This document shows, piece after piece, positions 20,873 to 49,624 of a DNA stretch of 64,000 nucleotides. A program made the position numbers and the translations under genes. Source of the DNA: an uncultured Planctomycetia bacterium (GTDB taxonomy: Bacteria > Omnitrophota > Gorgyraeia > Duberdicusellales > Duberdicusellaceae); the NCBI GenBank assembly GCA_964634935.1, contig CAZWJT010000001.1:224949-288948 (forward strand), read 5' to 3'. Each line of letters starts with the position of its first letter. The stretch's first letter is position 1. The notes under the pieces are model-generated. The model was not told where the DNA came from, did no database searches, and was given only the letters and a program-made list of their open reading frames with translations.

Positions 20873-20940
20873 ATTTATATCTTACTTTTTATTTATAATC
20901 TGTCAAGAAATCAACCAGGAAGAAAGGGGTCAAATGACAT

Positions 20941-22572: not shown

Positions 22573-22609
22573 CGGAAAATAGGCTGGAATGAAATGTTTA
22601 TTACAGAAA

Positions 22610-32611: not shown

Positions 32612-33790
32612 CTAACCAGTAATAATGCCTTTTTTCTTTAAAGCGCTAGCAAAAGCATCCACAACAAACGGATTATATTGAGTGCCCTTGCGAAGCATGA
32701 TTTCTCGAAGTGCAGTAAGATATGCAAGAGATTTCCTATACGGCCTTTCTGAGGTCATCGCATCAAAGCAATCGGCAACTGCGATAATGCTTGCAATCAA
32801 AGGAATATCCTTCCCACGCATTCCTTGAGGGTACCCACGGCCATTATAATATTCATGATGGTACTTTACGGCAACTGCTGCGTTTTTCAATTCACGAATC
32901 GGTTTGATCATATTGTATCCGATGAGCGGATGACGATGAACCACCGTGCGTTCCTTCTGAGTTAACCCCTGACGTTTATTCAAGATATGCTCAGGAATTC
33001 CGATCTTCCCGATATCGTGAAGAATTCCAGCAATACGAACATCTTCTTTCATGGAAAGGTACGTCTTTTTGTCAATAAGCCCTCCCTGATAGATTTCCTC
33101 GAGGATACTTAAAGCATACTCAGTCACTCGTTCAGTATGACCCAAAGTATAAGAATCTTTCGCCTCTATGGCCCCTGATAAAACTTTCATCATATTGAGA
33201 AATAATTCCCGGTTCTTTTCCACCTGGGATTTTAAGTTTTTAAAAAGCCAGGCATTTTTTAAAGCCATAGCCACATCCAGGGAGAGTACGGACAAAAATC
33301 CCAGTTCCGCAGTCGTGAAATCTTTATTGTTGTTTTTGCGGCCAAACACAGCAACTCCCAAAAGTTCTTTATGAAAATAACAAGGAATGCAAGCATCCGC
33401 TTTTAATCGAACGAATTCACGCTGTATCTTTTCGAAAAATTCCCGATCCCGGCTCCGCTGTTGTCTTTCCAGAAGAATGTCGAGTTGGGAAGAAAGCAAA
33501 TACTGCTTACCCCATTTCTGATGACGAACGCCATTATTAAAATAACGGATCAACGGGTTGTCAGTGCTCACTTCTCCTGCTTTCCGGGACAAAGAACAGT
33601 GAGCATCACGAGAGGCAACTGCGAAAGAATATTTACCGCGGTCGCTATTGTAAAATAAAATCCCTGCATGACAGATATCAATGTTCTTTACGACGGTCTT
33701 CAAGATAAGCTTAATCAGCAGATACGGATCGTGGATTAAAATCATCTGCCGTGCGGCATCTTCGAGAGTCTTGCGATACTTGACGCTCAT
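32612..33790 (-). CDS. GAF domain-containing HD-GYP phosphodiesterase (c-di-GMP)
   Basis: N-terminal GAF-like region. HD motif ILHDIGKIGIP. GYP motif YNGRGYPQG. Confidence 0.85.
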   Translation of the reverse strand: MSVKYRKTLEDAARQMILIHDPYLLIKLILKTVVKNIDICHAGILFYNSDRGKYSFAVASRDAHCSLSRKAGEVSTDNPLIRYFNNGVRHQKWGKQYLLSSQLDILLERQQRSRDREFFEKIQREFVRLKADACIPCYFHKELLGVAVFGRKNNNKDFTTAELGFLSVLSLDVAMALKNAWLFKNLKSQVEKNRELFLNMMKVLSGAIEAKDSYTLGHTERVTEYALSILEEIYQGGLIDKKTYLSMKEDVRIAGILHDIGKIGIPEHILNKRQGLTQKERTVVHRHPLIGYNMIKPIRELKNAAVAVKYHHEYYNGRGYPQGMRGKDIPLIASIIAVADCFDAMTSERPYRKSLAYLTALREIMLRKGTQYNPFVVDAFASALKKKGIITG

Positions 33791-33873: not shown

Positions 33874-34104
33874 TCACCATTGTAACTCTCCTTTTGTTTC
33901 CAGCTGAGGATGGTACCGAAGAGTAAGCCTATTTTTGCACTTGGGGCATCGGAAAGACCTCTTCTGATTCCTTCGATAACGATAGACGAGCCCTGGAAGA
34001 ATAAAAAGAAAGAAAAGAACCTGTTCTTTTTTCTTGTTCCCCGGCCTCACCACTTCCTCGCTCCCAACAAACTTGCAGTGAGGACAATATATCTTTCTCG
34101 CCAT
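33874..34104 (-). CDS. Small zinc-ribbon membrane protein (76 aa; CPHC...TM...CPKC)
   Basis: Start trimmed to MARKIYCPHCKF (1 nt after the motB stop). Central hydrophobic helix VLFFLFILPGLVY is flanked by two CxxC pairs. Confidence 0.45.
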   Translation of the reverse strand: MARKIYCPHCKFVGSEEVVRPGNKKKEQVLFFLFILPGLVYRYRRNQKRSFRCPKCKNRLTLRYHPQLETKGELQW

Positions 34105-34105
34105 A

Positions 34106-34993
34106 CTAATTATTGCTTTCTCCTGGATGAGACTGGACCTCCCCCGGGCTCTGAACCCGCGGTGTTTGCATGGAAACCTCTGTAACCTTTCTTTCTGGAT
34201 CAAGGAGAATCAAGACTACCCGCCGGTTCTTCTTTCTCCCTTCATCTGTAGTATTAGAGGCAACCGGCTGAGTATCAGCAAAACCAGTCGCTTTCAAGCG
34301 TCCCTGAGAAACCCCTTTTTGTTTGATCAAATACTCAACAACTACAACTGCCCGAGCGACTGAAAGATCCCAATTCGAAGTATACCGCTCAAGCCCCTTC
34401 CCCCAGCCAAAATAAGCCCGCTCATCAACAGGAATATTATCAGTATGCCCTTCGATAGAAACCGCATTCTCACAGCTTTTAACAATACTACCAAACATAT
34501 CTAGATAATCCTTTGCGGCAGGAACGAGCTTCGCGCTCCCTTTCTTAAAAAGCAGGTCGGCGCTCACCTTGACCGCAATCCCATCTTTTACCCGGCCAAT
34601 CTCGGTGTGCTGGGCGCCTGCGCTCTCTTGAATTTGTTTCTTCACCTTCTGATAGAAATCACTTGCGGCAGAAGTGGTAAAATCAACCGATTCCTTTCCC
34701 TCTTCCTGAGTCGTAGGAACGCTGATATCATCTTTCCGTTCAGCGGTCTTTACCATGGCAAGTCCTGCAGAGCCTTTTTCCTGTGAATCAGAAAGAAGCA
34801 TCCCGCCAAAACTCCCCAATGCTCCCCTGAGAGAACCAATTGCCCGGCCAAATTTTTTCTCTTCAATACTGGAAAAAGCAACTAAAAGCACGAAGAAACA
34901 AAGCAGGAGATTGTTTAGATCTCCCATAGTCATAACCCAAGCCGGAGCGCCTTCTTCTACTTCCTCTTTATTCAAAAAATCATCGAGCGCCAT
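34106..34993 (-). CDS. motB: MotB-like stator protein with OmpA-family peptidoglycan-binding domain
   Basis: N-terminus PAWVMTMGDLNNLLLCFFVLL with the conserved TM Asp. C-terminal OmpA-like region SIEGHTDN...NRRV. Confidence 0.85.
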   Translation of the reverse strand: MALDDFLNKEEVEEGAPAWVMTMGDLNNLLLCFFVLLVAFSSIEEKKFGRAIGSLRGALGSFGGMLLSDSQEKGSAGLAMVKTAERKDDISVPTTQEEGKESVDFTTSAASDFYQKVKKQIQESAGAQHTEIGRVKDGIAVKVSADLLFKKGSAKLVPAAKDYLDMFGSIVKSCENAVSIEGHTDNIPVDERAYFGWGKGLERYTSNWDLSVARAVVVVEYLIKQKGVSQGRLKATGFADTQPVASNTTDEGRKKNRRVVLILLDPERKVTEVSMQTPRVQSPGEVQSHPGESNN

Positions 34994-35009
34994 AAAAATT
35001 CATCCTAGC

Positions 35010-35807
35010 TTATTTTTTCTCTTGGGCCGGCGGCTGTTCTTGCTGCTGTTTTAACTTTTTCCTGAGTACCGGCGAAAGAAATATAGTCAACGCTTCTTCA
35101 ATCATAACTGAATTTTCATTTGCCTGGATACGTAAAATACCTTCCAAGATAATCGCTTTATTGACAAGTTCTTCGTCGGAGCGCCACTTAAGCTTCTCAG
35201 CGATTGGATTTAAAAAAAGATATGTAACAAGAGCACCGTAAAAGGTAGTAAGAATAGCAACCGCCATACCAGGCCCGATCTTTTTAGGATCATCGAGCAC
35301 TTTAAACATAGCAACCAATCCAATCAAAGTCCCGATCATTCCAAATGAAGGAGCAAGAGTTGCAAACATCTTTACTACTTTTATCCCTTTATCATGACGG
35401 CTCTGGACAAAAGCCATGTCTCGTTCAAGGATATTCCGCAAGACATCTGGCGGGGTTCTGTCGACAATAAGCACAAGCGCTTTGCGGAAGAATTCATTCT
35501 TAACCTTGCTGATCTCTTCTTCAAGGGCCGAAAAACCCTTGGTTCTCGCAAGCCGAGAGATTGCAACGATCTGCTGGATAATCTCAACCGGAGATTCGAT
35601 CTTATGGGTAAATGCGTGCTTGGTCACATTGAAAAAGTTTGCCACTTCTTTAATCGGGTAGGCAACCAGCGTTCCGGCTGTTGCTCCGCCAAAAACAATC
35701 ATCACTGAAGGAATATCCACGTAGGAAAGAAGGCTCGTTCCCATCATGATAGAAACAATCATCAAGGTAATGCCAACAACGATACCGATAATCGTACCTA
35801 AATCCAT
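35010..35807 (-). CDS. motA: MotA/TolQ/ExbB-family proton-channel stator protein
   Basis: Four TM helices in the MotA arrangement. ATG at 35807 used (the track start at 35828 is TTG). 10-nt overlap with the upstream lipoprotein gene. Confidence 0.85.
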   Translation of the reverse strand: MDLGTIIGIVVGITLMIVSIMMGTSLLSYVDIPSVMIVFGGATAGTLVAYPIKEVANFFNVTKHAFTHKIESPVEIIQQIVAISRLARTKGFSALEEEISKVKNEFFRKALVLIVDRTPPDVLRNILERDMAFVQSRHDKGIKVVKMFATLAPSFGMIGTLIGLVAMFKVLDDPKKIGPGMAVAILTTFYGALVTYLFLNPIAEKLKWRSDEELVNKAIILEGILRIQANENSVMIEEALTIFLSPVLRKKLKQQQEQPPAQEKK

Positions 35808-36913
35808 ACAATCCTCCTCATCTCCCAAGAGATGCCGCTCAATGTATCCTGATTTTCCTCATACCATTTATTCCATTCATCAATCGCTTTCTTGTTCTCA
35901 TCGCTGTTCAAGTCACTCTTAAAATCAAATCTCTTGCCCGTAAGTTCAAAAAGCCAAATGATGGCTTCATAGCGAATCAGAGAATCATCGACCGGAAGAA
36001 GGTCAATTAACGCCTTAATGATCCGCTTATCCTTTCTTCCGGCGAGGGCTTCTTTCAAAAAATCAAGATCGTCAACGATCTCATCATTGATCTTGAAATT
36101 AATCAGTTTTCCGGCCTGGCCACCCTTGGCTGCGTCATCCAACTTCTTTTTCTGTTTTGTAACTGTTTCAATCAAGTATTCATAGGGGGAATCATCGCCA
36201 AGCGCAAGAATCGCTCCCGCAATTCCTATCTTGACCGGTTCTTTTACTCCGGAAGCTTTGCGATCCTTCTCAAAAACCTCTTTGAGCTTAGGCAAAGTTT
36301 CCTTTACCTTTAGGTCCTTTAAGCCCAAAGCCGCTTCAAGCCGAACAGCAAAACTCGGATCATCAAGACCCTTGATAAGATACGGCACAGCGTTCTCCTG
36401 TAAAAAACTCCGTAATCCTCCTAAGGCATATTTCCGGATCCGTTCATCAGTATCCTGAAAACCTTGCTCAAGCAAAGAAAGCAGAGTTTCCGGATTGCGC
36501 AGTGCGACTAAACTGGAAAGAGCGACTGAACGCTTGGGAAAACTTTCATGCTTGAGCAATTCGGTAAGAACTGCCACTCCTTCCTTATTCTGGGAAAGCG
36601 TAAGCCCGATAAGTTCCCGAGTCGCCGAATGGCTCTCGCTCTTTCCCAAAGCCTGGTCGAATATCTTCAGAAGAATAGGAACTCCCTTTTCCTTAAATGC
36701 TCCGATAGAATTTGCTATTTGGGCTTTCTTAAAAACATCTTCCTCGCGCAGTAAACTTTCCCCGAATTTCTCCAGGTTCTCTTTTTCTTCTGGTGAGATT
36801 GTCGATTCAATAGAACTTACAATCAATCCGATTTGGTCTTTTTTCTCTTGCGGTTTCCCACACCCTGGAATGAAAAGAAAAAAAATAATGCCTATAATCA
36901 GATAAGCCCTCAT
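35798..36913 (-). CDS. HEAT/PBS-lyase-repeat lipoprotein
   Basis: Signal peptide with lipobox-like FIPGC. Repeated HEAT-like units (ERIRKYALGGL..., DDPSFAVRLEAALGL...). Confidence 0.6.
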   Translation of the reverse strand: MRAYLIIGIIFFLFIPGCGKPQEKKDQIGLIVSSIESTISPEEKENLEKFGESLLREEDVFKKAQIANSIGAFKEKGVPILLKIFDQALGKSESHSATRELIGLTLSQNKEGVAVLTELLKHESFPKRSVALSSLVALRNPETLLSLLEQGFQDTDERIRKYALGGLRSFLQENAVPYLIKGLDDPSFAVRLEAALGLKDLKVKETLPKLKEVFEKDRKASGVKEPVKIGIAGAILALGDDSPYEYLIETVTKQKKKLDDAAKGGQAGKLINFKINDEIVDDLDFLKEALAGRKDKRIIKALIDLLPVDDSLIRYEAIIWLFELTGKRFDFKSDLNSDENKKAIDEWNKWYEENQDTLSGISWEMRRIVWI

Positions 36914-36960: not shown

Positions 36961-38433
36961 CTATGTTTTTGGCTGCTCGGTAGCAGTAATCTTGATCTGG
37001 CCAACAATATAATCAACGATATCCTTATTGTTATAAGGAATTTTGATATAATCAGTCCCACTCCGTGAAGGTTGTTCGGTATAGACAACTTCATCGATCA
37101 TATAGTGTTTCACATAGAATGCGCCTTCAGGAATAGTGATGCTCGTGTAGAAACCGGCTTTAATATAATACTCACCTGCGGGGATATTCTGGGGAAGAGC
37201 AACCCGTACTGGTCCGGTTTCAAACTCCGACCCAACGGGCCAAACCGATGACGCAACCGGAGGGTAGCTTTCGGCGCTTAAAAACGTCTTTGCGCTTACC
37301 TTCTCCACAAGCCTGATAAACATCCTGTAGTTTTCTTTTACATGGGTTTCCGTAGTAAGCTTGAGATTGAGCGTAAAAGATTTCCCAGCTTCCGCCAAGG
37401 CAGGAAAATCGGCAGATTTAAAGCTCAAAAACGGGCGCTCATCGACAACCGTAGTTCCTTCTTGTGGAACAAGCTGAATACTGCTTACTGAATAACCTCT
37501 GCGTTCTTTCAATTCAGAGGCATAGAAATCAAAAAAAGCAATATCGGCAATATTGAGGTAATTGGCAATCTCGGCTAAATCAATCTTCACTGTTTTTCCA
37601 TAATGCTCTTTCGGATCAAGCCAGAGCTTGTATCTTCTCTCCTGGGAATCCTTGAGCTGCAAGGTAACATTCGGCTGCTCCCGCTTTGCCCCACCTTCAT
37701 CTTGAATTTGGAAAGTAAGAAAATCGTAGCGAGACCAGTCCGCGTATTCAGGATGCTCTTTAAAAAAATCATCCATGTAGAATGATGGAAACGGATATCC
37801 AGGATAAAACGTAACATCTACCCAGCCCTTGTTCGCCGCAAAGACTGCGCCGATCGTCTTCCAACGATCCAAGTGTGTTTCCTGAGAAAAATCACTCAAA
37901 AGAAGCGGTTCTACCTTTTTTGCTTCGGCTTTTTCTGATTTTATCACTTTTACCGTAGCCACGGTAAAATCTTTGATGTCGGTATTCGAGTATGGCTCGC
38001 GAATATAAGTCTGTTTGTTCTCCTCTAAAACAACCTCCATAACCCCGCACCGTATGCCATAGTCCCCTTCCGGTAAATCCTTGGGTACATAAATACCGTA
38101 AGGTCCGAGTTTAATCACCTCTGAACTGATCCATTCATCAGTTGGATAATCAAGCTCCGTATCGGCGTTCACAATGAGTTTTCCACTGGAGAGATTCACT
38201 AAATGCAGAAAGAGTTTGAGTGATTTTGGGATATAATCGATGACATAAAAACTGACATAGAGGGGAAGCACTTCGCCTTGTTGCACGGTCTCTGGAATCT
38301 CAATGGCCTTAAACGTAAGAAGGGGGGCTCCTTCCCGAACCTTGGAAACAGTCGTAGTATTCTGAGCAAATCCAACCTCGAGTATCATCGACATACATAA
38401 AAAAACAAAAAAGAAAACTTTTGTCTGTTTCAT
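36961..38433 (-). CDS. Secreted hypothetical protein with an internally duplicated domain of about 80 aa (paralog family A)
   Basis: Signal peptide. N- and C-terminal copies of the motif ...LF.HLV....NAD...P...W..GE...GP..I.IP..LP.GEY...G.F. Confidence 0.5.
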   Translation of the reverse strand: MKQTKVFFFVFLCMSMILEVGFAQNTTTVSKVREGAPLLTFKAIEIPETVQQGEVLPLYVSFYVIDYIPKSLKLFLHLVNLSSGKLIVNADTELDYPTDEWISSEVIKLGPYGIYVPKDLPEGDYGIRCGVMEVVLEENKQTYIREPYSNTDIKDFTVATVKVIKSEKAEAKKVEPLLLSDFSQETHLDRWKTIGAVFAANKGWVDVTFYPGYPFPSFYMDDFFKEHPEYADWSRYDFLTFQIQDEGGAKREQPNVTLQLKDSQERRYKLWLDPKEHYGKTVKIDLAEIANYLNIADIAFFDFYASELKERRGYSVSSIQLVPQEGTTVVDERPFLSFKSADFPALAEAGKSFTLNLKLTTETHVKENYRMFIRLVEKVSAKTFLSAESYPPVASSVWPVGSEFETGPVRVALPQNIPAGEYYIKAGFYTSITIPEGAFYVKHYMIDEVVYTEQPSRSGTDYIKIPYNNKDIVDYIVGQIKITATEQPKT

Positions 38434-38439
38434 GTTCTT

Positions 38440-39339
38440 TCAGAATTTCTCAAGAACCCACAGAAAAGAACGATGGCTCCAATTTTCAATCCCAATACGC
38501 GGGATAAAAAACCGGTTTGTTGTCTTTTTAAGACATCCTCCTTCAGCGCTCAACGCATAGGAGAATCCATAGCGCTTCAGAAGATGAGAAACGTTCCCGG
38601 GAACATCTTGTTTCCGCCCAAAAGGAAAAGCAAAAACAGGAAGAACACATTCCAGCTTCATACGCAGATACTCAAAAGACTGACCAATTTCCTCTTCGAC
38701 GTCCTGCGGAGTAAGAGCCGTAAAACAACGATGAGAAACGCCGTGGCAGCCATAAGTAAAAATATCCCGCATTTGAAAAAGCTCTTCCAAAGAAAGATAG
38801 AAAGAACCTGAATCTTCAGGATACACCAAAGCATTTACTTTACAAAAATTCTGGAGCACAAGTACCGGGTCTTTGTAGTATTTTATATAGGAAAATACCT
38901 CATGCAAAGAGGAAAATTTTCTCCCCAGGAGATTGGAGTATCTCCCGAGAAGCTCGCGCGCTGGAAAATGCCTCCGAAGTTCTTGAAAAGCATCATACCA
39001 GAGGAAACGGCCATCCCCCAGAGAAGAAGTGAAAAAAAGCGTTGCCGGAAGACCAAGCTCCTTTAAAACAGGATAAGCAAGCGTGTAGATATCGCGGTAT
39101 CCGTCATCAAAAGTGATGCTGACTTCATAAGGGCCATTCTTTCCCTTCTCCCACTGGCTCAATAATTCAATTAATGGAACAACACGGTAATATTTTTTAA
39201 GCACCTTAAGCTGTGAGAAAAAATTATCGCGCTCCACGCTCATGGATCGATAGAATTCCGGACAACTTCCCTGATAAATACGATGATAGAGAAGTACCTT
39301 TGGTTTTTTCTGATTAAAAAATCTTAGGATATACCACAT
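38440..39339 (-). CDS. Polysaccharide deacetylase (CE4 / NodB homology)
   Basis: ITFDDGY and CHGVSH motifs. No signal peptide. Confidence 0.8.
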   Translation of the reverse strand: MWYILRFFNQKKPKVLLYHRIYQGSCPEFYRSMSVERDNFFSQLKVLKKYYRVVPLIELLSQWEKGKNGPYEVSITFDDGYRDIYTLAYPVLKELGLPATLFFTSSLGDGRFLWYDAFQELRRHFPARELLGRYSNLLGRKFSSLHEVFSYIKYYKDPVLVLQNFCKVNALVYPEDSGSFYLSLEELFQMRDIFTYGCHGVSHRCFTALTPQDVEEEIGQSFEYLRMKLECVLPVFAFPFGRKQDVPGNVSHLLKRYGFSYALSAEGGCLKKTTNRFFIPRIGIENWSHRSFLWVLEKF

Positions 39340-39357
39340 TGAACATGCACAAATCTG

Positions 39358-40416
39358 TTATGGACAATTCTTATCTTGACTCACAACAAAAAGATCGGAA
39401 ACACGAAAATCATCCTGATTTCTTCCCTGGTATAAAAGCCGCAGGTGATGTCCAAACAGCTTCTCGATCGACTCGTCACTGTCGTCTGTCGCTGAACGGA
39501 ATAATCCTCCATCAACCCTGTAATGCCCCGGCGGAAAAACACAAGGAAAGGTGATCTCGGAAGAATTCAATGTATACTCCTTTCCTGCCGGAAGCCCCAT
39601 GGTTGCGGTTGACTGAATATCTGCATTCAAAAACAGTTTCCTTTTCTTGGCTTCTTCCGCGGTAAGTTTATCAGGATAGATATGGATAAACGCCCTATAG
39701 TCATGCTGGAGCGTTTCTGAAGAAGATACGATAAATTGAACACGAAATTTTTCACAAGGATGAACGCACTTCGGAAATTTGCTGCTTACGAGAGAGAGGA
39801 TCGACCGCACTCCCCCATGAGCATTTCCACGCTCGAGAACAAAATTATCACAATACAGAGTTACGTTCCGTAAAGGCCGAGGAAGATAAATATTTACCTG
39901 GGTAATCTCCTGAATATCAAGAACTCCAGCAATGCCAACAAGGGGAATACGTATTTTTGTCGGCTGCTGAGGCGGCAACGCGAATTCACGCTTAAACCGT
40001 TTATCCTGTGAATCTTTAATCTGAACATAGAGCACAATGGTATAACTATGCGGATTATAAACAGTTACCGCAAAGCGGGCATACTCCCGCCAGTCTTTCT
40101 TTGCCCGAGGACCAAAGTCACTATCTTCAAGAACAATCCGGGGAAATGCTTCACGACGGGCAAAAAAGGTTACTTTGCCAGAAAATTTTCCTCCTGAAAG
40201 ATGAGACGTAGATTGTTGAAGTTCTGCCGAATACACCTCCCACTGCGAGATGTTTTTTTGCTCTTCAAAATCTTCAAGTACCTCAAAAGGCGCCTTACGT
40301 TCAAGCCGCGCCAGGAAAACCTCCAGAAAACGGGAAAGGATATCCCGCTTAACATACCCAATCCCGAATAAACCCAAAAGAAAAAAACCTATAAGAATTG
40401 CGATCTTAACGCGCAT
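39358..40416 (-). CDS. Membrane-anchored or secreted hypothetical protein carrying one copy of the paralog-family-A domain
   Basis: N-terminal TM/signal segment. Domain region FIHIYPDKL...LFLNADIQSTATMGLPAGKEYTL...FPPGHYRVDGGLF. Confidence 0.45.
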   Translation of the reverse strand: MRVKIAILIGFFLLGLFGIGYVKRDILSRFLEVFLARLERKAPFEVLEDFEEQKNISQWEVYSAELQQSTSHLSGGKFSGKVTFFARREAFPRIVLEDSDFGPRAKKDWREYARFAVTVYNPHSYTIVLYVQIKDSQDKRFKREFALPPQQPTKIRIPLVGIAGVLDIQEITQVNIYLPRPLRNVTLYCDNFVLERGNAHGGVRSILSLVSSKFPKCVHPCEKFRVQFIVSSSETLQHDYRAFIHIYPDKLTAEEAKKRKLFLNADIQSTATMGLPAGKEYTLNSSEITFPCVFPPGHYRVDGGLFRSATDDSDESIEKLFGHHLRLLYQGRNQDDFRVSDLFVVSQDKNCP

Positions 40417-42691
40417 TGGGATTTTTTTGCAATTGAAGAATCGCTTGTGCTATTTTCCTGCGAAATTCCTGGTATGTTTTTTTGTCTCGGACAAAATCAC
40501 AGGGCGATGCGATAATTTCCTGACAGGACAAAAGCGACTCAATACATTTCTGATCAGCGGGAAAAATCGTTTTTGCCCCGGACAGCTGTTTCAACTGATA
40601 GAGATACTCGTAATCTTCTAACCCGTCACGCAATATTTCAAGACGCAATGAAGGCACAATCCCATACAGCGACGGATAGTAGAGAACCCCATTGCCATTC
40701 TGCTCAGGAAAATTCATCGGGTCTTTCCAGGGATCAGTCGACCAGCGATTCACCGCCCAATATAACAACCCTTCTATCCCATACTTCCAACACACCGAAG
40801 GAACTACTCGATAATCAACGGCAGCGGTATCAATCACAAAACTCGGATACGGGAACATCGGCGAAGAAACATAGGTCCAAAGGGCTCTGTTATGGTTCTT
40901 TACCTGTCGGACAACTTCCGAATTCAGCTTACTGATATTCACGCACCAGATATCAACATCAGTATAGGAAAAATCGGGATACATAGTGACTAAATTCTTT
41001 ATCAACGGATGGCCGTCATGGATAGCGCGGGTTACTTCTCGGACGCGATTGAAAGTTTCATCAAAAATATAGGCATAGGATTTGTCTAAAGCGCCGATCT
41101 TCTGTAGATAGGCACCAAAGAGTTTAAACGTAGTGACTGCGTTCGCACGGCTACTTAAACCGGGCCATTCAATCCAATCCTTCTTTTCCTGGGAAGGCCA
41201 TTCAACGCCGATCGAGAACGCATTCTGTGAAAGCCCTTTACAGTACAAATCGTACTTTTTTGTAAAGGAATCAAAACCGAGATCTTTTACCGAACCGTCT
41301 TCAATGATAAATTCAGGGTCTCCAAGGTTATGAATCGGAGAAATCCGGTGGCTGAGCATATCCCGGTAATAAGAGTCTAAACGTAACGCCACCTGGTCTT
41401 TTTGTCCAGGCATAACGGAGCGGCTCTCAATGTAGTGCGGATAGAGTTCAAAAGCGGTTTTCAGATGCGTTTCTTTAGGTAAAGTAAAATCCCAGACAGT
41501 CAGACGAAGAGTTGCTTCTAGCGTCGCCTGGCCACCAGAAGAAAAATGAATCGCCCCCTCATAGAGACCGGAAGGCGCATCTTCGGGAACATGAATTCTT
41601 ACCCAAAAAGGATATGCTTTCTTCGGTTCAAGATTGATAAAAGAATTGCCTGGCGCAAGCGGATCAGGCCAAAGACCAATCCGGCTGACGTTATAGTAAG
41701 GTTTCTTGGTCTGTACATTTCCCACGGTAAAAATACGGACGGATCGTGCAGGAAGAACAAAACTTCCTCCTTGATGCCGGAGAGGTCCAAGCCGCACACA
41801 AGCGTCTCCCATCTGAGAAGTCCAGGGAATAACTACAAGCTGGAATGATTCATATTCGTTTCGGGCGCTTTGGAGCTCGATATTGTTGGTAAAAAACAAA
41901 TCAGGATTACTCTGAAGATCAGGAAAAACTTTAGTCAAGGAATCGGCAAACGCAAGAACATACCGCGGAATTCCTTCCTGCGGATAACGTAATGCGGCAG
42001 AAAAAATCTTTCGCGCTTGTATTTGTTCTTTCAACCGCATAATTTGATGCCAAAGTTCTTCATTATCCTCCTCGTCTCGATCAGGCATAGCCAATCCCTG
42101 TTCTAACCGGGGAAAAAAATCCCTGAAAGAAGGGGTAGCCTTAACTAATTCTCTCAGGGTATTGATTTCGCGCAAAAAAGCGGGAACAGTAATCGTGCCA
42201 ATCTGCCAATCTTTTATTCCTTTCTGAACATAGGCAAGCCGAGTGTATTCAACGGAACGGAAAAATTGAAAAGTCCCGTTCTTACTCTTATCGGCAAACC
42301 GCGGGTATTCCTTCCGGAAAAAAAGACCAAGGCGCAGCTTGTACTCCCCAAGCGGCAAAGTGGATGGTATTTTAATCGCAATCGGACCAACGGAAATTTC
42401 TTCTCCTTTTGCCCATTCAAAAGAAGGCTTCGGTAAGTAACTGTCTGCGTTCACGAAAATATCGCCATCTTGAACGAGATGCACAAAAAGTCGAAGATCA
42501 AGGTCGGTCTTTTCTTGAAGCGCAAGTTTTACTCTGACATAAACGGTATCACCGGGACTTGCCTCAGAAGGCATTTCAACCGCAATAAGGTTTACCTCAG
42601 GTAGCCTATCCCCATAACGGAATCCGCATAACAGACTTCCGAAAAAAAGAATAGGAGAAATCAGAAAAAATAAAAAAATCTTTCGCGTCAT
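40406..42691 (-). CDS. Large secreted protein (761 aa). N-terminal paralog-family-A domain plus a DUF4091-like, glycoside-hydrolase-like C-terminal region.
   Basis: Signal peptide. N-terminus LRLFVHLVQDGDIFVNADSYLPKPSFEWAKGEEISVGPIAIKIPSTLPLGEY. C-terminus GNGVLYYPS...LRLEILRDGLEDYEYL, recalled from memory as DUF4091-like. Confidence 0.5.
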   Translation of the reverse strand: MTRKIFLFFLISPILFFGSLLCGFRYGDRLPEVNLIAVEMPSEASPGDTVYVRVKLALQEKTDLDLRLFVHLVQDGDIFVNADSYLPKPSFEWAKGEEISVGPIAIKIPSTLPLGEYKLRLGLFFRKEYPRFADKSKNGTFQFFRSVEYTRLAYVQKGIKDWQIGTITVPAFLREINTLRELVKATPSFRDFFPRLEQGLAMPDRDEEDNEELWHQIMRLKEQIQARKIFSAALRYPQEGIPRYVLAFADSLTKVFPDLQSNPDLFFTNNIELQSARNEYESFQLVVIPWTSQMGDACVRLGPLRHQGGSFVLPARSVRIFTVGNVQTKKPYYNVSRIGLWPDPLAPGNSFINLEPKKAYPFWVRIHVPEDAPSGLYEGAIHFSSGGQATLEATLRLTVWDFTLPKETHLKTAFELYPHYIESRSVMPGQKDQVALRLDSYYRDMLSHRISPIHNLGDPEFIIEDGSVKDLGFDSFTKKYDLYCKGLSQNAFSIGVEWPSQEKKDWIEWPGLSSRANAVTTFKLFGAYLQKIGALDKSYAYIFDETFNRVREVTRAIHDGHPLIKNLVTMYPDFSYTDVDIWCVNISKLNSEVVRQVKNHNRALWTYVSSPMFPYPSFVIDTAAVDYRVVPSVCWKYGIEGLLYWAVNRWSTDPWKDPMNFPEQNGNGVLYYPSLYGIVPSLRLEILRDGLEDYEYLYQLKQLSGAKTIFPADQKCIESLLSCQEIIASPCDFVRDKKTYQEFRRKIAQAILQLQKNPNAR

Positions 42692-43330
42692 TTATTTACG
42701 TCGTAGAATAAGGTAAGTGTTTGAGAAGGTATTTCGAGGAATATTGCGAAAATGCGACAGGATGCCATCGAGATATTTTAAGGGAAAAATAAGCACGGTC
42801 CAAAAATAGTAAAAGAATTTAAATAATGCCTTGCTGTTCAAGGAGCAAATACTAGCAACCGCGTTCACCCAGATTCCAAGAAGAACTGAAAAAGGTAATT
42901 TGGCGCATCCTTCCTCCAGCACATCAAAACCATCTGCAAAAATACGCTTGAGCCCGTTTATGCTAAAACGAAAGTTGTCTTCAGGATTCGGATGATAAGG
43001 ATAGATAAACGCGGAACTGACATAAAGAAAACCCCCTGACTTTAATACTCGCCGTAACTCCAAAGCAGCCTGGAAAGGATTCTGGCAATACTCAAGAACA
43101 TGATCGCAGAGAACGGCATCACAGGAAGAACTCCGCAGGGCAAGAAATTCTGCCTGGAATACCGCATCAACTTTCCGCTGTGAAAGCGTTATATCCGCAT
43201 TGAGAAAACCCTGCAGATAGTTCTCTCCGCAACCAAGATTCACGCAACATTTCAAACCTTTCGCGAGAGAAAAAAATTGAGCCTTTTGGTCATCAACGTT
43301 AAAATCAAGAAGCCGGTCGCCTATCCACAT
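42692..43330 (-). CDS. Class I SAM-dependent methyltransferase
   Basis: SAM-binding motif CVNLGCGENYL and Methyltransf_11-like layout; 212 aa. Confidence 0.75.
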   Translation of the reverse strand: MWIGDRLLDFNVDDQKAQFFSLAKGLKCCVNLGCGENYLQGFLNADITLSQRKVDAVFQAEFLALRSSSCDAVLCDHVLEYCQNPFQAALELRRVLKSGGFLYVSSAFIYPYHPNPEDNFRFSINGLKRIFADGFDVLEEGCAKLPFSVLLGIWVNAVASICSLNSKALFKFFYYFWTVLIFPLKYLDGILSHFRNIPRNTFSNTYLILRRK

Positions 43331-43397
43331 AAAATTTTTGGTTCTCTATGTCTATTGTATTATAAATTCTGAAATACTCCACAGCTGAATAGAAAAA

Positions 43398-45698
43398 TTA
43401 GCCGGAAGTTTTTTTATATACATCCTCTACTGATTGGATAAATTCGAAAGCGCTGTACCCGGAAACCCGTTCGTAGGCTGCCCGGGTAATTTTTCGACGC
43501 AATTTTTTATCTTGGAGTAAAAGCGCAAGATGTTCAGCAAGCTTCAGGGAATTTCCAACAGGAAATAACAGTCCATCGATACCATCCTGGATAACACTCT
43601 CCGCCCCGCGCGTCTCCGAAGCAACCACAGGAACACCCGAAGCTTGAGCCTCCAAAATAACTAAAGGCCTTCCTTCATAGAGCGAGGCCAACACCAAAAC
43701 ATCCGCCCCTTCCAAAATGGCACGGATATCCTGGCGGGGAGGCAAAAAAGAAATATGCTCGTGAATTCCCTTCTGTTGAACAAGGGTCTCCAGACGAAGC
43801 TGCTCTGGCCCCTCGCCAACGATCATTCCCTGAATCGGAAAACCACGCGATACAAGAGAAGCCACGGCGTCGATAAAAACATGAAAGCCTTTTTCTGGCA
43901 CAAGCCGACCGACACTGATTACTTTAAACGAGCAAGCATCAGAAATGCGGTTAAGATTTCTTTCCCGAATATATTCAAAGTATTGAAGATCCACTCCGGT
44001 CTGGCAGACTACAATCTTTTCCTGAGGAATCCCCGCTTTCCGGTAAAAATCACCGACCAAGTTTGAAACTGCGATTATTTTTTCCGTTACCACGGAAAGT
44101 ATCCTATTCGCAAAAATCTGGTACTTTTTGCGCCAAGAATCAAAGCTGTGCTCAAAAATAATAACCTTAGCGGATGGAAAACCAAGAAGAGAAAGTCTCG
44201 TCCATAATGAAGCACTCCATAGATGAGACGAAACAATATCAATATGCTTCTTGCGGACCAAATCCCGTAATGAACGAAAAACCGAACAATCACAGCCGGA
44301 TCTTTTCTCAAAATGAAAAACATTTTCCCGACCCACAAGCTCTTCAAACAATGCGCTGTAAAAACCCTTCCCGGTAAGACAACAGACTGAGATGGCAAAG
44401 TCATCCTTGGAGTGACCACGAATGAGCTCATAGATTATCTTCTGCGCCCCTCCGGATTCAAAGGAATAAACAACATAGAGAAGGTTGATTTTCCGCGCGG
44501 CTCTTTTCTGAAAAATATCACAGAGAGAATAAAGAAGGATCTCCCGGTTGAAATACTGCGTAACAAACGCGCGTCCTCGCTGAGAAAGCTCTTGCCGCAA
44601 TGTATCTTTTTCGGTCATCACGCGCATTTGTTCCGCAAGGCGGTCCGGGCTATATGGCGGCACAAGCACTCCGGTAACCCCATCGACAATAACTTCGGGA
44701 ATAGCAGAAACAGAAGTCGAAAGCGCCAGGCATTGTCTTTCCATAGCTTCAAGAATCACATTCGGCAAGCCGTCTCCAGTGCCTTCTTTTTGGTAGCAAG
44801 GAAGAACAAAAATGGAAGCATTTCCTAAAACTGCCCTTAATGCGTCGTGGGAAATTTCACCCTGAAGAAAAACGTTCTGCAACCCATGCTCTGCGATCAT
44901 CTGTTCAAGTTGAGCGCGTAACGGTCCCTCGCCAAAAATCAATACCTTCCACTCCTTCAGCAAATTTCTGTTCTGGGTTAACGAAAGCAACAATATTTCA
45001 AAGCCTTTCGTGGGTACAAGTCGCCCGGCTGAAACAATGATTTTCTCTTTCTGGGCTGCGTCAGGAGCAGGAAAAATATAGACCCCGTGGTATTGCAAAA
45101 TTACCTTTTCTGGGCAAAACTCATAAGTTTTAAGGAGAAAATCACGGGCAAACTTGCTACAGGTGAGAATAAAATCTGCACTTTCCCCTTTCGCTTTATG
45201 CGAAGACCACGAACAAAAAACATCATGAGCGTGAGCGCTCACCGCATAGTGCACCGGGAGAAGTCGAGAAAGAAAAAATCCGATACTGGCGGGATATGTG
45301 AACCAATGGCAATAGAGAAATACCGTTCTATAATTCGGAAAAATCATTCCAGCAAGAAAAAATGACTGAAAAAAGACATAAAGTGTTTTCCCGAAAATGG
45401 ACAAACCGTCGGAGAAGAAAAAACGCAATGCGCCTATCGCCCTGCAGCATCTGAAAGGATGGAAAAATAAAAAATATAAAAAAGATCCTAGTGATCTCCA
45501 GCCAAATCCAGAAGGCAGATAAAGTGTATTGGCAATAAGCCCTTCATTTTCTCTGTGGCATAGTGGTCTCTGAGGTTTTTTCAGAGAAATAATCCGTATT
45601 TCCCATCCTTGCCGTTTTAAAAAATCGATTTCTTGGGTGATAAACGTTTCATAGAATTGAGGAAACTCTGAAGTAATGATATAAACGGTCTTTCGCAT
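43398..45698 (-). CDS. Tandem-domain glycosyltransferase (two complete GT4 modules fused, 766 aa)
   Basis: Two separate GT4 C-terminal signatures: GEGPLRAQLE...VLPCYQKEGTGDGLPNVILEAM and VGEGPEQLRLE...VLASLYEGRPLVILEAQASGVPVV. Confidence 0.8.
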   Translation of the reverse strand: MRKTVYIITSEFPQFYETFITQEIDFLKRQGWEIRIISLKKPQRPLCHRENEGLIANTLYLPSGFGWRSLGSFLYFLFFHPFRCCRAIGALRFFFSDGLSIFGKTLYVFFQSFFLAGMIFPNYRTVFLYCHWFTYPASIGFFLSRLLPVHYAVSAHAHDVFCSWSSHKAKGESADFILTCSKFARDFLLKTYEFCPEKVILQYHGVYIFPAPDAAQKEKIIVSAGRLVPTKGFEILLLSLTQNRNLLKEWKVLIFGEGPLRAQLEQMIAEHGLQNVFLQGEISHDALRAVLGNASIFVLPCYQKEGTGDGLPNVILEAMERQCLALSTSVSAIPEVIVDGVTGVLVPPYSPDRLAEQMRVMTEKDTLRQELSQRGRAFVTQYFNREILLYSLCDIFQKRAARKINLLYVVYSFESGGAQKIIYELIRGHSKDDFAISVCCLTGKGFYSALFEELVGRENVFHFEKRSGCDCSVFRSLRDLVRKKHIDIVSSHLWSASLWTRLSLLGFPSAKVIIFEHSFDSWRKKYQIFANRILSVVTEKIIAVSNLVGDFYRKAGIPQEKIVVCQTGVDLQYFEYIRERNLNRISDACSFKVISVGRLVPEKGFHVFIDAVASLVSRGFPIQGMIVGEGPEQLRLETLVQQKGIHEHISFLPPRQDIRAILEGADVLVLASLYEGRPLVILEAQASGVPVVASETRGAESVIQDGIDGLLFPVGNSLKLAEHLALLLQDKKLRRKITRAAYERVSGYSAFEFIQSVEDVYKKTSG

Positions 45699-45707
45699 CT
45701 TCAGGTT

Positions 45708-46853
45708 TTACGGATAAGCAAATAAGCCGCAACACCGCAAACATCCTGTAAATAACTTCCCCTGCCGCAGGATTCTTCTGAAATGGATGGCGCGCTGGGA
45801 GTTCCAAAGCACCGAAAACTTCTCAGTTCGAATGTTCCCGAAAATAAAATCCATACAGGGAATTATCTTGCCGTCAGGAAGAAGTATAGCCTCCCTCCAG
45901 GGAGCGGTACATCGGTACTTTAAAGGCAGAGACGGATTTCCATAATACTTCCTGATCTGTTCATCGGTCAAAGCAGGAAAGAAATTAACCGGGAAAGAGA
46001 ACCGAGCCTGCCGAATCCTCTTGATTTGCCCTGACAATATTTCCGGAGAAATTCCTTCTGCGCTCTGCCAGTTCTGAGCTTGCAAATCGAAAAGATTACT
46101 TTCGCTATCGGATTCGTGATGTCGTTGAACCATCGTTTTATCCCAAAACCAAAGATGAGAAATACTCACGCTGTCTACAGGTTCATGTTCAAGTATTTTA
46201 AGAAGTTCGAATAAAAAAGTGTAATTTTTCTTCGTAATACATGGTGCAATCTTTATGCGGGGAACCGTTGTATGAAGCCGTCTTTTTTCATCGGAAACTT
46301 TTCGTATACCCTGAAGCGCCAGATTAAATGTGCCGGCTTTACCGCGCAGTGCATCATGGATTTCTTCCGGAGCATCCAGAGAAACATTGAGGCTATGCAC
46401 TTTTTCCTGAACCAGAAACTCCGCAAACTGATCAAGAAGAACACCATTGGTAGTCACACAAACATCAAGATTGCGCAATCTGGCAGCATGCACAAATTCA
46501 CGGAAATCCTTGTAGAGCAACGGTTCTCCCCCAACAATACTGATTAAAGGAGAAAACCGCCTTACTTCGTCAAAAAACTGCTCATAGATTGCCTTCTCGA
46601 GCGGCTTTTCTTCAAGCGTGGAACGCAAAGAAGCAACTGGCTCACGGCCGCTGTAGAGCGTACACATCTCGCAGTGAAGATTGCAATGGTGGGTAACCTC
46701 GCAATGAATAATGACCGGGGAAAATGCCCTGCCTCCAAGAAGAAAATAATCGAATAGAACATAAGCCTTGAGCTTTCGCCAAAAAGCCCGCATCGCGTAC
46801 AAGGGATTCCGTATGACGATTGAGCACCGATCTCTCAATTTTCCGGAAATCAT
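45708..46853 (-). CDS. Radical SAM enzyme with C-terminal SPASM-like Cys-rich domain
   Basis: CNLHCEMC (CxxxCxxC). C-terminus CTAPW...CMDF...GCLRCCG. 381 aa. Confidence 0.75.
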   Translation of the reverse strand: MISGKLRDRCSIVIRNPLYAMRAFWRKLKAYVLFDYFLLGGRAFSPVIIHCEVTHHCNLHCEMCTLYSGREPVASLRSTLEEKPLEKAIYEQFFDEVRRFSPLISIVGGEPLLYKDFREFVHAARLRNLDVCVTTNGVLLDQFAEFLVQEKVHSLNVSLDAPEEIHDALRGKAGTFNLALQGIRKVSDEKRRLHTTVPRIKIAPCITKKNYTFLFELLKILEHEPVDSVSISHLWFWDKTMVQRHHESDSESNLFDLQAQNWQSAEGISPEILSGQIKRIRQARFSFPVNFFPALTDEQIRKYYGNPSLPLKYRCTAPWREAILLPDGKIIPCMDFIFGNIRTEKFSVLWNSQRAIHFRRILRQGKLFTGCLRCCGLFAYP

Positions 46854-46864
46854 CTTTCTCTATC

Positions 46865-47989
46865 TCAGCTTTTTAGAAAACTTTTATAAATTCGAACATA
46901 GGAATGCACCATTTCCGCAAGAGTAAATTTTTCCAGAATGGTCCTCCGGCCAGCCTGCCCAAGAGAATTTCGTACTGCATCGTTCTGAAGAAGCTCGTTG
47001 GTTCTTTGCGCCAACTCCCGATAACCAAACGGTTCGACTAAAAAGCCGTTATAGTCATGCTGCAATACGGCTGTATTACCGCCTGCGCTCGTTGCACATA
47101 CGGTAATACCGCATGCCATCGCTTCAAGTAGGGCATTCGACATCCCTTCTGAGTCGGACAGAAGAAAGAACAAATCCATAATTTGCAGATAAGGCAATAC
47201 TTCTGTTCGTTCTCCAAGAAAGTGTATCCGCGGATTATCTTCCGCCAATAGTCTAAACTCTTGCTCTTTTTTACCTTTCCCAATAACGAGAAAAACCGCA
47301 TCGTCCCTCAGAGTGCAAACTTCCCGGGCCATCCTAATAAAATGCCCGACCCCTTTCACTGCCGACAGATGAGCAACAGTACCACAGACATAAGGAAATT
47401 GCCCAAAACCAAGATGGTTTTTGAGCCGTATTTTCTCCTCAGGAGAAACAGGAACATAGTGTTGGACATCTACCCCATTCGGAATAATGGTAATTTTCGA
47501 TTGTGGGATTCCTTCGTAACGTAAAACGTGATCCCGTACTGCAGGGGAATTAGCGATACTCAAGTTGACAAAGCTGTTGGCGAATCTCCGACAGATCCGA
47601 TATCGGAACTTATTCCAGAAAACCGTTGCGCGCCTTGCCGAAATAAGACAGCGCACCCCGCCAAACCAAGCTGCAGGAGTAGCATAGACATGCGCAGAAA
47701 AAAGATACGTCTGAACTATTCCTATTTTGTTTTTCCGGAACCAACGAATGAGAACAAAAAATTTCCGTAAGGCAAAAAAACCGTAAATCCTGTGAAGACC
47801 AAGCACAAAAACTTCAATGCCATACTCCTGGCAAAGCCGGAGAAGTCGCTCATCCGAAGGCATAAGACAAATGATATAAGGAATAAATTCTGCACGAGGA
47901 ATATTTTTGGCAAGGCTGATAATATGCCGCTGCGCTCCAGCAAAAATTAACTGGTCAATAACAAAAGCTATTTTTATCGGACGAGACAT
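46865..47989 (-). CDS. Glycosyltransferase family 4
   Basis: 374 aa. C-terminal GT4 signature LSDSEGMSNALLEAMACGITV. Confidence 0.85.
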   Translation of the reverse strand: MSRPIKIAFVIDQLIFAGAQRHIISLAKNIPRAEFIPYIICLMPSDERLLRLCQEYGIEVFVLGLHRIYGFFALRKFFVLIRWFRKNKIGIVQTYLFSAHVYATPAAWFGGVRCLISARRATVFWNKFRYRICRRFANSFVNLSIANSPAVRDHVLRYEGIPQSKITIIPNGVDVQHYVPVSPEEKIRLKNHLGFGQFPYVCGTVAHLSAVKGVGHFIRMAREVCTLRDDAVFLVIGKGKKEQEFRLLAEDNPRIHFLGERTEVLPYLQIMDLFFLLSDSEGMSNALLEAMACGITVCATSAGGNTAVLQHDYNGFLVEPFGYRELAQRTNELLQNDAVRNSLGQAGRRTILEKFTLAEMVHSYVRIYKSFLKS

Positions 47990-48508: not shown

Positions 48509-49624
48509 TCAATAACTCCGTGCATAATCACGGAATGTCAGCGGCAACCCTTCTTTGAGTCGCTCAATACCGCAAATATAATTTTGGCAACAAAGACAAT
48601 TTCCTTTACAGCCAGCCATCGGCTCGAAAAAATTACCTTTACGCACATAAACAGGAATATCGATTCCTTCGCAATTGAACGATGAACCGAAAGAACGATT
48701 CAAGCCCTTGAGCGTTAAACCATCCTTCTCAAATTCCATGCACAGTCCGAAGGTAATCCCGAAAGAATCACAAATCTGACGCAAGGTAAGAAAAGTTTTT
48801 TTCCTGTAGCTAGTTTCTGCCTGAAAAGAATTGTATCTTTCGGAGTATAATAATCGGTACCGAATACTCATGTCTCTTCCAAACAATGCTTCAATCCTCT
48901 GGAAAAAAAACTCTTTTAGCGGAACAGGAATGTCGAGAACTGACGCGATGATATGTTGAGCGCCGTTTTCACGCGCTCTCCGAACGAGTAACGCAAGATC
49001 ATCTGCCGCATCAGTAATGTACGGCAGTATAGGATCAATCCGACAGACCGAGAATAAATCTTTTTTGGCAAGGCATTTCAAGTTACCGAAAAGCTCGTTG
49101 GTCTTTGCTCCATGAGGAATAATGCTATGCCGAAGTGCTTCGTGGGGGGTAAGTATTGAAATTTGCCCAAAACAATGAGGATGCCCGGAAATCATCGCGA
49201 TGATTTCCGGAGGAATTTTCTCCTTGGTTACAAATTCAATAGGAATATTTCTCTGGATAAACTCTCTGGCGGTCTTTTCAGAAAGTCTATACCGTTTGTT
49301 CACTCGCTGGAACGGATCGGCAACCGGAGAAAGATAACCACAAAACGCAATTTGACACCGATCAAGCTGCCGGGAAACTTGTTCAGGGAAATTTTGGAAT
49401 ACAAAGACAGTGCGCGTAGAATGAAATTTCTGAAAATAACCAGGCAGCGCTCGCGCATAGCAGAAAAAACAGCCTACGCCACAACCATTGTATGGATTGA
49501 GCAACATCCGCTCAGAAGTGCACTCTCTCTGAGACCAGGCATACCACCCATGGATTTGTTTTTTTGAATCGACAAGACAATGTTTACAGGGCTTAGTGAG
49601 ACATTTTGCCTGCGCTTGAATCAT
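48509..49624 (-). CDS. SPL-family radical SAM protein (COG1533-like, splB-type)
   Basis: YNGCGVGCFFCYA cluster (Cx3Cx2C) typical of the photoproduct-lyase-like family; 371 aa. Confidence 0.65.
   Translation of the reverse strand: MIQAQAKCLTKPCKHCLVDSKKQIHGWYAWSQRECTSERMLLNPYNGCGVGCFFCYARALPGYFQKFHSTRTVFVFQNFPEQVSRQLDRCQIAFCGYLSPVADPFQRVNKRYRLSEKTAREFIQRNIPIEFVTKEKIPPEIIAMISGHPHCFGQISILTPHEALRHSIIPHGAKTNELFGNLKCLAKKDLFSVCRIDPILPYITDAADDLALLVRRARENGAQHIIASVLDIPVPLKEFFFQRIEALFGRDMSIRYRLLYSERYNSFQAETSYRKKTFLTLRQICDSFGITFGLCMEFEKDGLTLKGLNRSFGSSFNCEGIDIPVYVRKGNFFEPMAGCKGNCLCCQNYICGIERLKEGLPLTFRDYARSY

Follow-up and report, generated by a model that had tools for sequence, protein, structure and literature searches.

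A 64-kb stretch of contig CAZWJT010000001.1, from an uncultured bacterium of the GTDB lineage Omnitrophota, carries four minus-strand open reading frames lying head to tail, at the coordinates given for them in the original prediction. We call them D, C, CE4 (B299) and A, refer to the whole stretch as the window, and give coordinates as positions within it (Table 1). Proteins A, C and D share a domain that we name X, A and C share a second one, M, and D ends in a module of glycoside hydrolase (GH) type, while the remaining gene encodes a polysaccharide deacetylase of family CE4. The start of C overlaps the end of D by 11 nucleotides (nt). All four belong to a longer same-strand array running from a GT4 glycosyltransferase gene (from 47989) down to a motB-like gene (34106), in which intergenic gaps range from -11 to 67 nt, and from 0 to 67 nt in the upstream part (42692-47989). 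Kyte-Doolittle profiles give one N-terminal hydrophobic segment each in A, C and D, in agreement with the original assignment of signal or transmembrane N-termini to all three, and no hydrophobic N-terminus in the CE4 protein.

The X copies, two in A and one each in C and D, are homologous. By BLASTP, residues 9-163 of A match D 6-169 (66.6 bits, 29% identity), A 331-484 match D 28-171 (65.5 bits, 28% identity) and C 207-306 match D 33-124 (35 bits, 24% identity). We conclude that all four belong together because an X hidden Markov model (HMM), built only from 12 homologues from outside the window and with E-values scaled to 1.84 billion sequences, scores each of them: D at E 1.2e-30, A copy 1 at 1.6e-23, A copy 2 at 4.8e-18 and the copy in C at 6e-4. 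The paralogy of four segments first seen by eye therefore holds up under alignment. Its extent does not: alignments and the AlphaFold2 (AF2) model put X at about 135-160 amino acids (aa), and the block of about 80 aa originally described is its conserved core. Neither the X nor the M HMM finds a further copy in the window. The domain was also said to belong to no named family, and Pfam and NCBIfam indeed hold no match to X at threshold; A is without any significant Pfam match, and NCBIfam adds nothing for A, C or D. Matches of X to PapG_N (E 0.04) and GEVED (E 0.013) were taken as chance.

Comparison of A with C revealed the second domain, M, of about 155 aa, which had been overlooked (BLASTP, A 178-433 against C 46-310, 63 bits, 22% identity). 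Searched against the PDB, an M profile of 20 domains matches the carbohydrate-binding module (CBM)-like N-terminal domain of a GH50 beta-agarase (4BQ2, E 1.8e-4) and CBM11 (1V0A, E 7.6e-3). Among the same 20 members, Pfam Agarase_CBM (PF17992) matches six, at best E 8e-6, and CBM_11 two, all below gathering score. M is probably a jelly-roll module of carbohydrate-binding type, and differs from these relatives in always being accompanied by X. In the AF2 model of full-length A, three separate beta domains are seen (mean predicted local distance difference test, pLDDT, 84.8), and Foldseek with this model returned only strings of beta-sandwich domains, such as those of xanthanase 6FHJ and complement proteins, which is uninformative. 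Eleven of the 12 C-like sequences start with a hydrophobic segment similar to that of C, P0166 being the exception.

Judged by family profiles, the C-terminal part of D is a GH123/DUF4091-type hydrolase with its Asp-Glu pair intact, much as was guessed when the region was called DUF4091-like. PF13320 (GH123_cat, the former DUF4091) matches aa 523-698 with 62.1 bits against a cutoff of 23.1 (E 7.4e-17); PF22680 is marginal (27.8 against 27) and PF19543 stays under its cutoff (18.3 against 22). The D family profile finds NgaCa, a Group 1 oligosaccharide-releasing beta-N-acetylgalactosaminidase, as its best PDB match (8K2F, E 3.7e-62), followed by 8K2J (E 3e-61) and then 8K2H, with BvGH123 (5L7R) at E 6e-43, and a single-sequence phmmer search with D also places NgaCa on top (101 bits). 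NgaCa is the closest solved relative of D and resembles it in module order, an N-terminal beta-sandwich being followed by the (beta/alpha)8 barrel and the DUF4091 region; the sandwich of D aligns to 8K2F residues 34-200. By profile score, D is almost equally close to 8K2F and to 8K2J, a Group 3 enzyme. D544-E545, aligned to the 'ADE' of NgaCa, is invariant in a 15-sequence family alignment, as are WPDPL, W363, YW, YP and R683; the DE motif and conserved PD, W, YW, YP and R positions are common to D and NgaCa. Unlike D, NgaCa (516 aa) has no membrane anchor, no X and no 88-aa linker; D is also distinctive in being encoded within a glycosyltransferase cassette. The linker is covered by no family match and, by length comparison, appears to be mostly absent from the shorter D-type homologues (678-709 aa).

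All groups of the GH123/DUF4091 superfamily use the DE motif for catalysis, by a substrate-assisted, retaining mechanism (Sumida et al. 2024, PMC11087588). The same work describes the NgaCa cleft as suited to long chains and leaves the natural substrates of the NgaCa-like branch not established, its authors speculating on repeating exopolysaccharides (PMC11087588). By this relationship, D is predicted to act on beta-N-acetylhexosamine (beta-HexNAc) or beta-N-acetylgalactosamine (beta-GalNAc) linkages with retention.

Table 1. Genes, domains and sites of the locus and its surroundings (positions in the 64-kb window)
Feature	Coordinates	Strand	Description
Gene D	40406-42691	(-)	761 aa; N-terminal anchor, X, linker, GH123/DUF4091-type hydrolase
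D N-terminal hydrophobic segment	42614-42691	(-)	aa 1-26, signal anchor or signal peptide; Kyte-Doolittle maximum 2.37
X copy in D	42161-42613	(-)	aa 27-177; alignments, AF2 model, independent HMM
D linker	41897-42160	(-)	aa 178-265 (88 aa), between X and GH module; helical/charged look from sequence
D GH123-type N-terminal beta-sandwich	41477-41896	(-)	aa 266-405; NEYESFQ, WPDPL, W363
D (beta/alpha)8 barrel, DUF4091 region and C-terminal helices	40409-41476	(-)	aa 406-761
D544-E545 codons	41057-41062	(-)	candidate catalytic Asp-Glu pair
Gene C	39358-40416	(-)	352 aa; membrane anchor, M, X
C transmembrane anchor	40351-40416	(-)	aa 1-22; Kyte-Doolittle 2.15
M in C	39817-40281	(-)	aa 46-200; CBM11/agarase CBM-like resemblance
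X copy in C	39361-39816	(-)	aa 201-352; most divergent copy
CE4 polysaccharide deacetylase	38440-39339	(-)	299 aa; PF01522, no export signal
Gene A	36961-38433	(-)	490 aa; signal peptide, X, M, X
A signal peptide	38362-38433	(-)	aa 1-24, ends ...GFAQ; AF2 pLDDT <50 for aa 1-26
X copy 1 in A	37921-38346	(-)	aa 30-171; BLASTP, alignment, HMM
M in A	37447-37920	(-)	aa 172-329; M HMM E 6e-49
X copy 2 in A	36964-37446	(-)	aa 330-490; ~20-aa insertion
GT4 gene	46865-47989	(-)	Pfam; upstream part of array
Radical SAM/SPASM gene	45708-46853	(-)	Pfam; between GT4 genes
Double GT4 gene	43398-45698	(-)	Pfam; upstream part of array
SAM methyltransferase gene	42692-43330	(-)	Pfam; upstream part of array
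HEAT-repeat lipoprotein	35798-36913	(-)	Pfam/NCBIfam; downstream of A
PomA/MotA-like gene	35010-35828	(-)	Pfam/NCBIfam; downstream of A
MotB-like gene	34106-34993	(-)	Pfam/NCBIfam; downstream of A
PMT_2 GT-C protein without X repeats	24702-26348		second envelope-glycan block
TPR and Wza-like exporter	22610-24718		Poly_export, SLBB; PEP-CTERM-type export model below cutoff
543-aa protein	20941-22572		no family match; second envelope-glycan block
Coiled-coil 393-aa protein	19691-20872		second envelope-glycan block (19691-26348)

The AF2 model of X, from a 20-sequence alignment, is all-beta with eight strands (pLDDT 92.2, predicted template modelling score 0.83), and X is predicted to be a non-catalytic, eight-strand immunoglobulin (Ig)-like beta-sandwich. 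It is not a rare new domain. An exhaustive X profile search of 1.84 billion representatives finds 5,363 proteins at E <=1e-3 and 679 at E <=1e-10, and shows that the low yield of a word-index search (zero relatives with the X alignment, only two with A) reflects a limit of sensitivity and not rarity. Most matches are proteins of 900-1,000 aa with two or three tandem C-terminal copies; 18 of 65 sampled matches are PMT_2 (GT-C) glycosyltransferases, and GH16, PG_binding_1, GH123 and DUF4832 modules are also linked to X in the sample. By profile comparison, X belongs, as a divergent member, to a very large, essentially unnamed family of extracytoplasmic domains rather than an invention of this genome.

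Among the known domains closest to X are the C-terminal tandem beta-sandwiches of PMT_2 proteins, on which hmmsearch E-values go down to 1e-30. X copies of the window can be aligned with these repeats over their full length and have in common with them the motif FVHL...D...PT..W..GE...P...P.G.Y....GLY, with F-x-H, D, W, G-E, P, G-x-Y and G-L-Y/F conserved in both. The window copies differ in having NAD in place of Q.D, in missing the PT motif, in longer insertions ahead of the last strands, and in standing singly or split around M where the PMT_2 repeats are in tandem. In some of the matched proteins, X-type regions are covered by positions 136-209 of the DUF4832 profile (PF16116), as in P0147, a typical member of the wider family (E 1.3e-10). 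Only one of 20 X sequences matched DUF4832 (E 0.023) and no window copy did at threshold; the relation is indirect, since it runs through the more typical members of the wider X family.

The CE4 protein matches PF01522 with 54.4 bits (cutoff 23.1, E 1.5e-14) and carries the motifs 'ITFDDGYRD' (TFDD) and 'HGVSH' (H-x3-H), so that the deacetylase reported between the paralogues is indeed there. With the PgaB/IcaB-type models TIGR03938 and TIGR03933 it reaches 46.2 and 54.1 bits against cutoffs of 321.9 and 248.4, over the N-terminal part only. Outside close relatives, its best counterpart is the CE4 part of a 994-aa GT4-CE4-GT4 fusion (locus L004, 6869-9853; aa 14-124 of the window protein, 42% identity over 112 aa). 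The CE4+DUF3473 genes in the L005, L008 and L009 cassettes described below were rejected as orthologues, there being no BLAST match at 1e-3. Because it has no export signal and its counterpart is fused with glycosyltransferases, this CE4 is probably a cytoplasmic biosynthetic enzyme working alongside them and not part of a complex with A, C and D on the outside.

We compared the window with loci labelled L001-L011 and L014, among which L003, L005-L007, L008 and L009 have longer flanks. The exhaustive search yielded at least eight more A-type clusters and about 12 C-type clusters. Scans of representative genomes with A, and with A aligned to its two closest relatives, found no relative and missed the source genome itself as well. 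A C-like gene directly follows a D-type gene in seven lineages (the window, L001/L002, L003, L005-L007, L008, L009 and L010), and an overlap of the D stop with the C start, usually of 4 nt, is usual among them. A-, C- and D-type genes all occur in L011, where two glycosyltransferase genes separate D from C and the A-type protein is about 27% identical to A. For the D-type protein of L005-L007, the 90% cluster includes sequences that NCBI names Auribacterota. Around these genes a cassette recurs (L003, L005-L007, L008 and L009) of an epimerase, several GT4s, a radical SAM/SPASM enzyme, a SAM methyltransferase and a CE4, often with a GT2 as well. The radical SAM/SPASM protein is 49% identical to that of the window in L003, 37% in L005 and L009 and 29% in L004, and L008 has a Radical_SAM/SPASM gene in the same position.

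In a neighbour-joining tree of 28 X copies, made without bootstrap support, most copies fall together according to type and position (A1, A2, C and D) and not according to genome. On the clustering by type across genomes we reject a recent local duplication, and the duplications appear to predate the divergence of these lineages. It is for this reason that the local paralogue expansion proposed in the original prediction is wrong: orthologues of all three types stand together in the distant L011.

Some further observations on these loci are recorded here. In cassettes of the Auribacterota type, a conserved trio of unannotated genes follows the C-like gene (L005 13243-16802, L008 13207-16801, L009 13172-14854, L010 5031-6608), and of their products one of about 120-143 aa contains CxxC pairs, one of about 425 aa has an N-terminal anchor and one of about 606 aa has TPR; tblastn finds no counterpart in the window. 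Exosortase EpsH/EpsI genes lie near D- or A-type genes in L004 (14770-21227) and L014 (13169-14631), and L004 also has PEP-CTERM proteins, which suggests that the cassette can belong to PEP-CTERM/exosortase-associated polysaccharide loci. The radical SAM/SPASM enzyme of the window has best NCBIfam matches far under cutoff. Just upstream of the glycan array, a 371-aa protein (48509-49624) has no Pfam match and resembles the PA0069/Rv2578c radical SAM family only weakly, at 64.7 bits where the cutoff is 360.

Because the window encodes a Wza-like exporter, an OmpA-type MotB and a lipid A acyltransferase-like protein, the source cell is most likely diderm, and a periplasmic or inner-membrane-anchored position of A, C and D is therefore likelier than one at the surface. 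Of the surface complex for glycan binding or processing that was first proposed, the glycan setting is supported, a surface location is less likely, and the CE4 protein is probably not a part.

Our preferred reading, to which we give somewhat better than an even chance, is that A, C and D are an old, conserved extracytoplasmic set that binds and trims the cell's own HexNAc-containing polysaccharide. The GT4, radical SAM, methyltransferase and CE4 genes would make a polysaccharide or lipid-linked glycan that A, C and D then handle, a product that may be partly de-N-acetylated and possibly methylated, the de-N-acetylated residues arising earlier through CE4 in the cytoplasm. D would be an inner-membrane-anchored retaining beta-N-acetylhexosaminidase, cutting beta-HexNAc bonds outside the cytoplasm by substrate-assisted catalysis through D544/E545. 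C is probably made in step with D as its stoichiometric partner, and may tether the polymer or D at the membrane. A, as a soluble periplasmic or secreted X-M-X protein with three binding-type modules, could bind or bridge the polymer. X and M are read as binding-type folds, and would target A, C and D to one common glycan ligand.

It also should be considered that several results weigh against this reading. Sugar binding is a putative property of X and M, inferred in the case of X. X has no significant match among catalogued CBM families, Pfam or solved structures: its sequence profile reaches at best E 0.95 against the PDB, a broader profile E 0.01 or weaker (a sialidase linker domain, RbmA), and Foldseek with the X model returns nothing from the PDB under E 1e-3. 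The best structural analogues are Ig-like or E-set sandwiches with TM-scores of only 0.4-0.5 (NIS1, NPC2/ML, RhoGDI, MD-1, Asf1, the arrestin N-lobe, CARDB and the Wzt carbohydrate-binding domain), a list that mixes lipid-binding sandwiches (NPC2/ML, RhoGDI and MD-1) with the carbohydrate-binding domain of Wzt. Every Pfam match of M falls under its gathering score (for C, 22.3 against 26.3 with PF17992). The characterised GH123-type enzymes are catabolic, or their natural substrate is not established. Beside the cluster there is no obvious flippase, polymerase or synthase, and in one locus, L004 of an Omnitrophota genome, a D-type gene stands without a C-like gene, the only such case.

The structural neighbours of X bear on a first alternative, that X is a protein-protein assembly module, through which, along with M, A, C and D form a hetero-oligomeric periplasmic scaffold in which only the GH module touches glycan. 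Asf1, arrestin and antibody domains are among those neighbours, an Ig-like fold often serves protein contacts, no known CBM is matched by X, and the tight translational coupling of D and C in many lineages suggests a physical complex. Nevertheless, across the 5,363 representatives X is found mostly in tandem on single polypeptides, for example PMT_2 proteins, which fits binding of a substrate or ligand better than recruitment of partners, and here it co-occurs with the CBM-like M. We consider a scaffold of this kind unlikely.

A second alternative takes the lipid-binding sandwiches at face value. X would then be an ML/RhoGDI-like domain gripping the polyprenyl or lipid part of a lipid-linked glycan at the outer face of the inner membrane, and would present intermediates to D and, in other proteins, to GT-C glycosyltransferases. 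NPC2, RhoGDI and MD-1 are the top Foldseek analogues, and partial Pfam ML-domain matches fall on X-family regions. In D, moreover, X is placed directly behind the anchor, and in PMT_2 enzymes, whose donors are polyprenyl-phosphate sugars, it is placed behind the membrane domain. However, the TM-scores are low (0.39-0.48) with nothing under E 1e-3, the same list holds the Wzt domain and many unrelated Ig folds, and A is soluble, with two X copies and no anchor. This idea seems to us a little less probable again than an assembly role.

The position of A next to motility-type genes raises a third possibility, that the A-type protein, perhaps the whole set, works with a MotA/MotB-type stator, either on periplasmic glycan around the motor or in proton-coupled glycan secretion. 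An A-type gene, with A-type proteins only 26-57% identical among these loci, is separated from motA/motB by no more than two genes in the window (34106-36913), L001 (4366-7099), L011 (9757-13481) and L014 (3835-9486). The order A, HEAT-repeat lipoprotein, MotA, MotB is common to the window and L001, and a gene for an HD-GYP-type cyclic di-GMP phosphodiesterase stands beside motB in the window. The question whether the paralogues are conserved together with a MotAB module thus receives a mixed answer: these loci keep the adjacency, whereas L003 has A with no adjoining motAB, and the D-C pairs of L005, L008 and L009 have none nearby. In L011 and L014, moreover, motAB is part of an ordinary flagellar operon that includes flbD and a FliG-like gene and runs on the opposite strand. 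Near the motAB genes of the window neither flbD nor a fliG-like gene is found, and MotA there resembles PomA/MotP (253.8 bits against a cutoff of 341). The adjacency may be a gene order inherited within one clade, and inherited order and functional coupling are not separable on five informative loci. We regard the stator link as improbable. An extended form appears no more credible, in which the triad, especially its X-M-X protein, is coupled to a MotA/MotB-type proton channel, so that ion-motive force drives handling or secretion of a periplasmic HexNAc polymer, or the polymer is part of the periplasmic scaffold of the motor, and X is a new ligand-binding fold shared with thousands of GT-C enzymes. 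Least probable of all is nutrient foraging, with D degrading foreign GalNAc-containing glycans captured by A and C, as in polysaccharide-utilisation systems: characterised GH123 enzymes do degrade host or environmental glycoconjugates and multiple CBM-like modules are typical of glycan-degrading systems, but the D-type genes of L003-L009 and L011, the loci whose flanks exceed a few kb, are surrounded by genes for glycosyltransferases and sugar modification, in many cases a CE4 too, and no transporter, kinase or catabolic gene lies nearby; in the window, gaps of only 0-67 nt separate D and the biosynthetic genes on the same strand.

The HD-GYP gene just mentioned (32612-33790; HD_5, E 3e-33) lies just downstream of motB and is followed by genes for a GT28 resembling monogalactosyldiacylglycerol synthase, the lipid A acyltransferase-like protein and a GT2, a neighbourhood in which motility might be tied by regulation to glycan or glycolipid genes. 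A 109-aa reading frame with two CxxC pairs (33874-34203, zinc-ribbon-like) overlaps the end of motB by 98 nt, and its true start is therefore probably further downstream.

Returning to our preferred reading, binding and trimming of the cell's own polysaccharide, useful parallels are found in PelA, PgaB, PslG and BcsZ, which are periplasmic hydrolase or deacetylase components of exopolysaccharide systems. The A/C/D set would resemble such hydrolases in bringing a glycoside hydrolase with an export signal, together with a CE4, into a polysaccharide biosynthesis locus. It would differ in the hydrolase family, which is GH123-like here, in a CE4 without signal peptide, and in having no adjoining synthase, PilZ or porin genes; the X/M accessory proteins are without counterpart in those systems.

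Overall, this is a polysaccharide locus that encodes an exported hydrolase together with accessory proteins of binding type, of a known kind but with different families and a new accessory domain. Current ideas are not overturned by this; rather, the familiar combination of a hydrolase and binding modules within a polysaccharide locus is extended to new families. The conserved biosynthetic cassette always comes with an NgaCa-like enzyme and therefore indicates the cell's own polysaccharide as the substrate, a genomic clue for that branch of enzymes, while also supplying a defined gene set for reconstitution. The strict pairing of D with C predicts a two-protein unit. Once its ligand is found, X would help to annotate a large group of envelope proteins, since the domain occurs in at least 5,363 protein clusters, of which many are GT-C glycosyltransferases.

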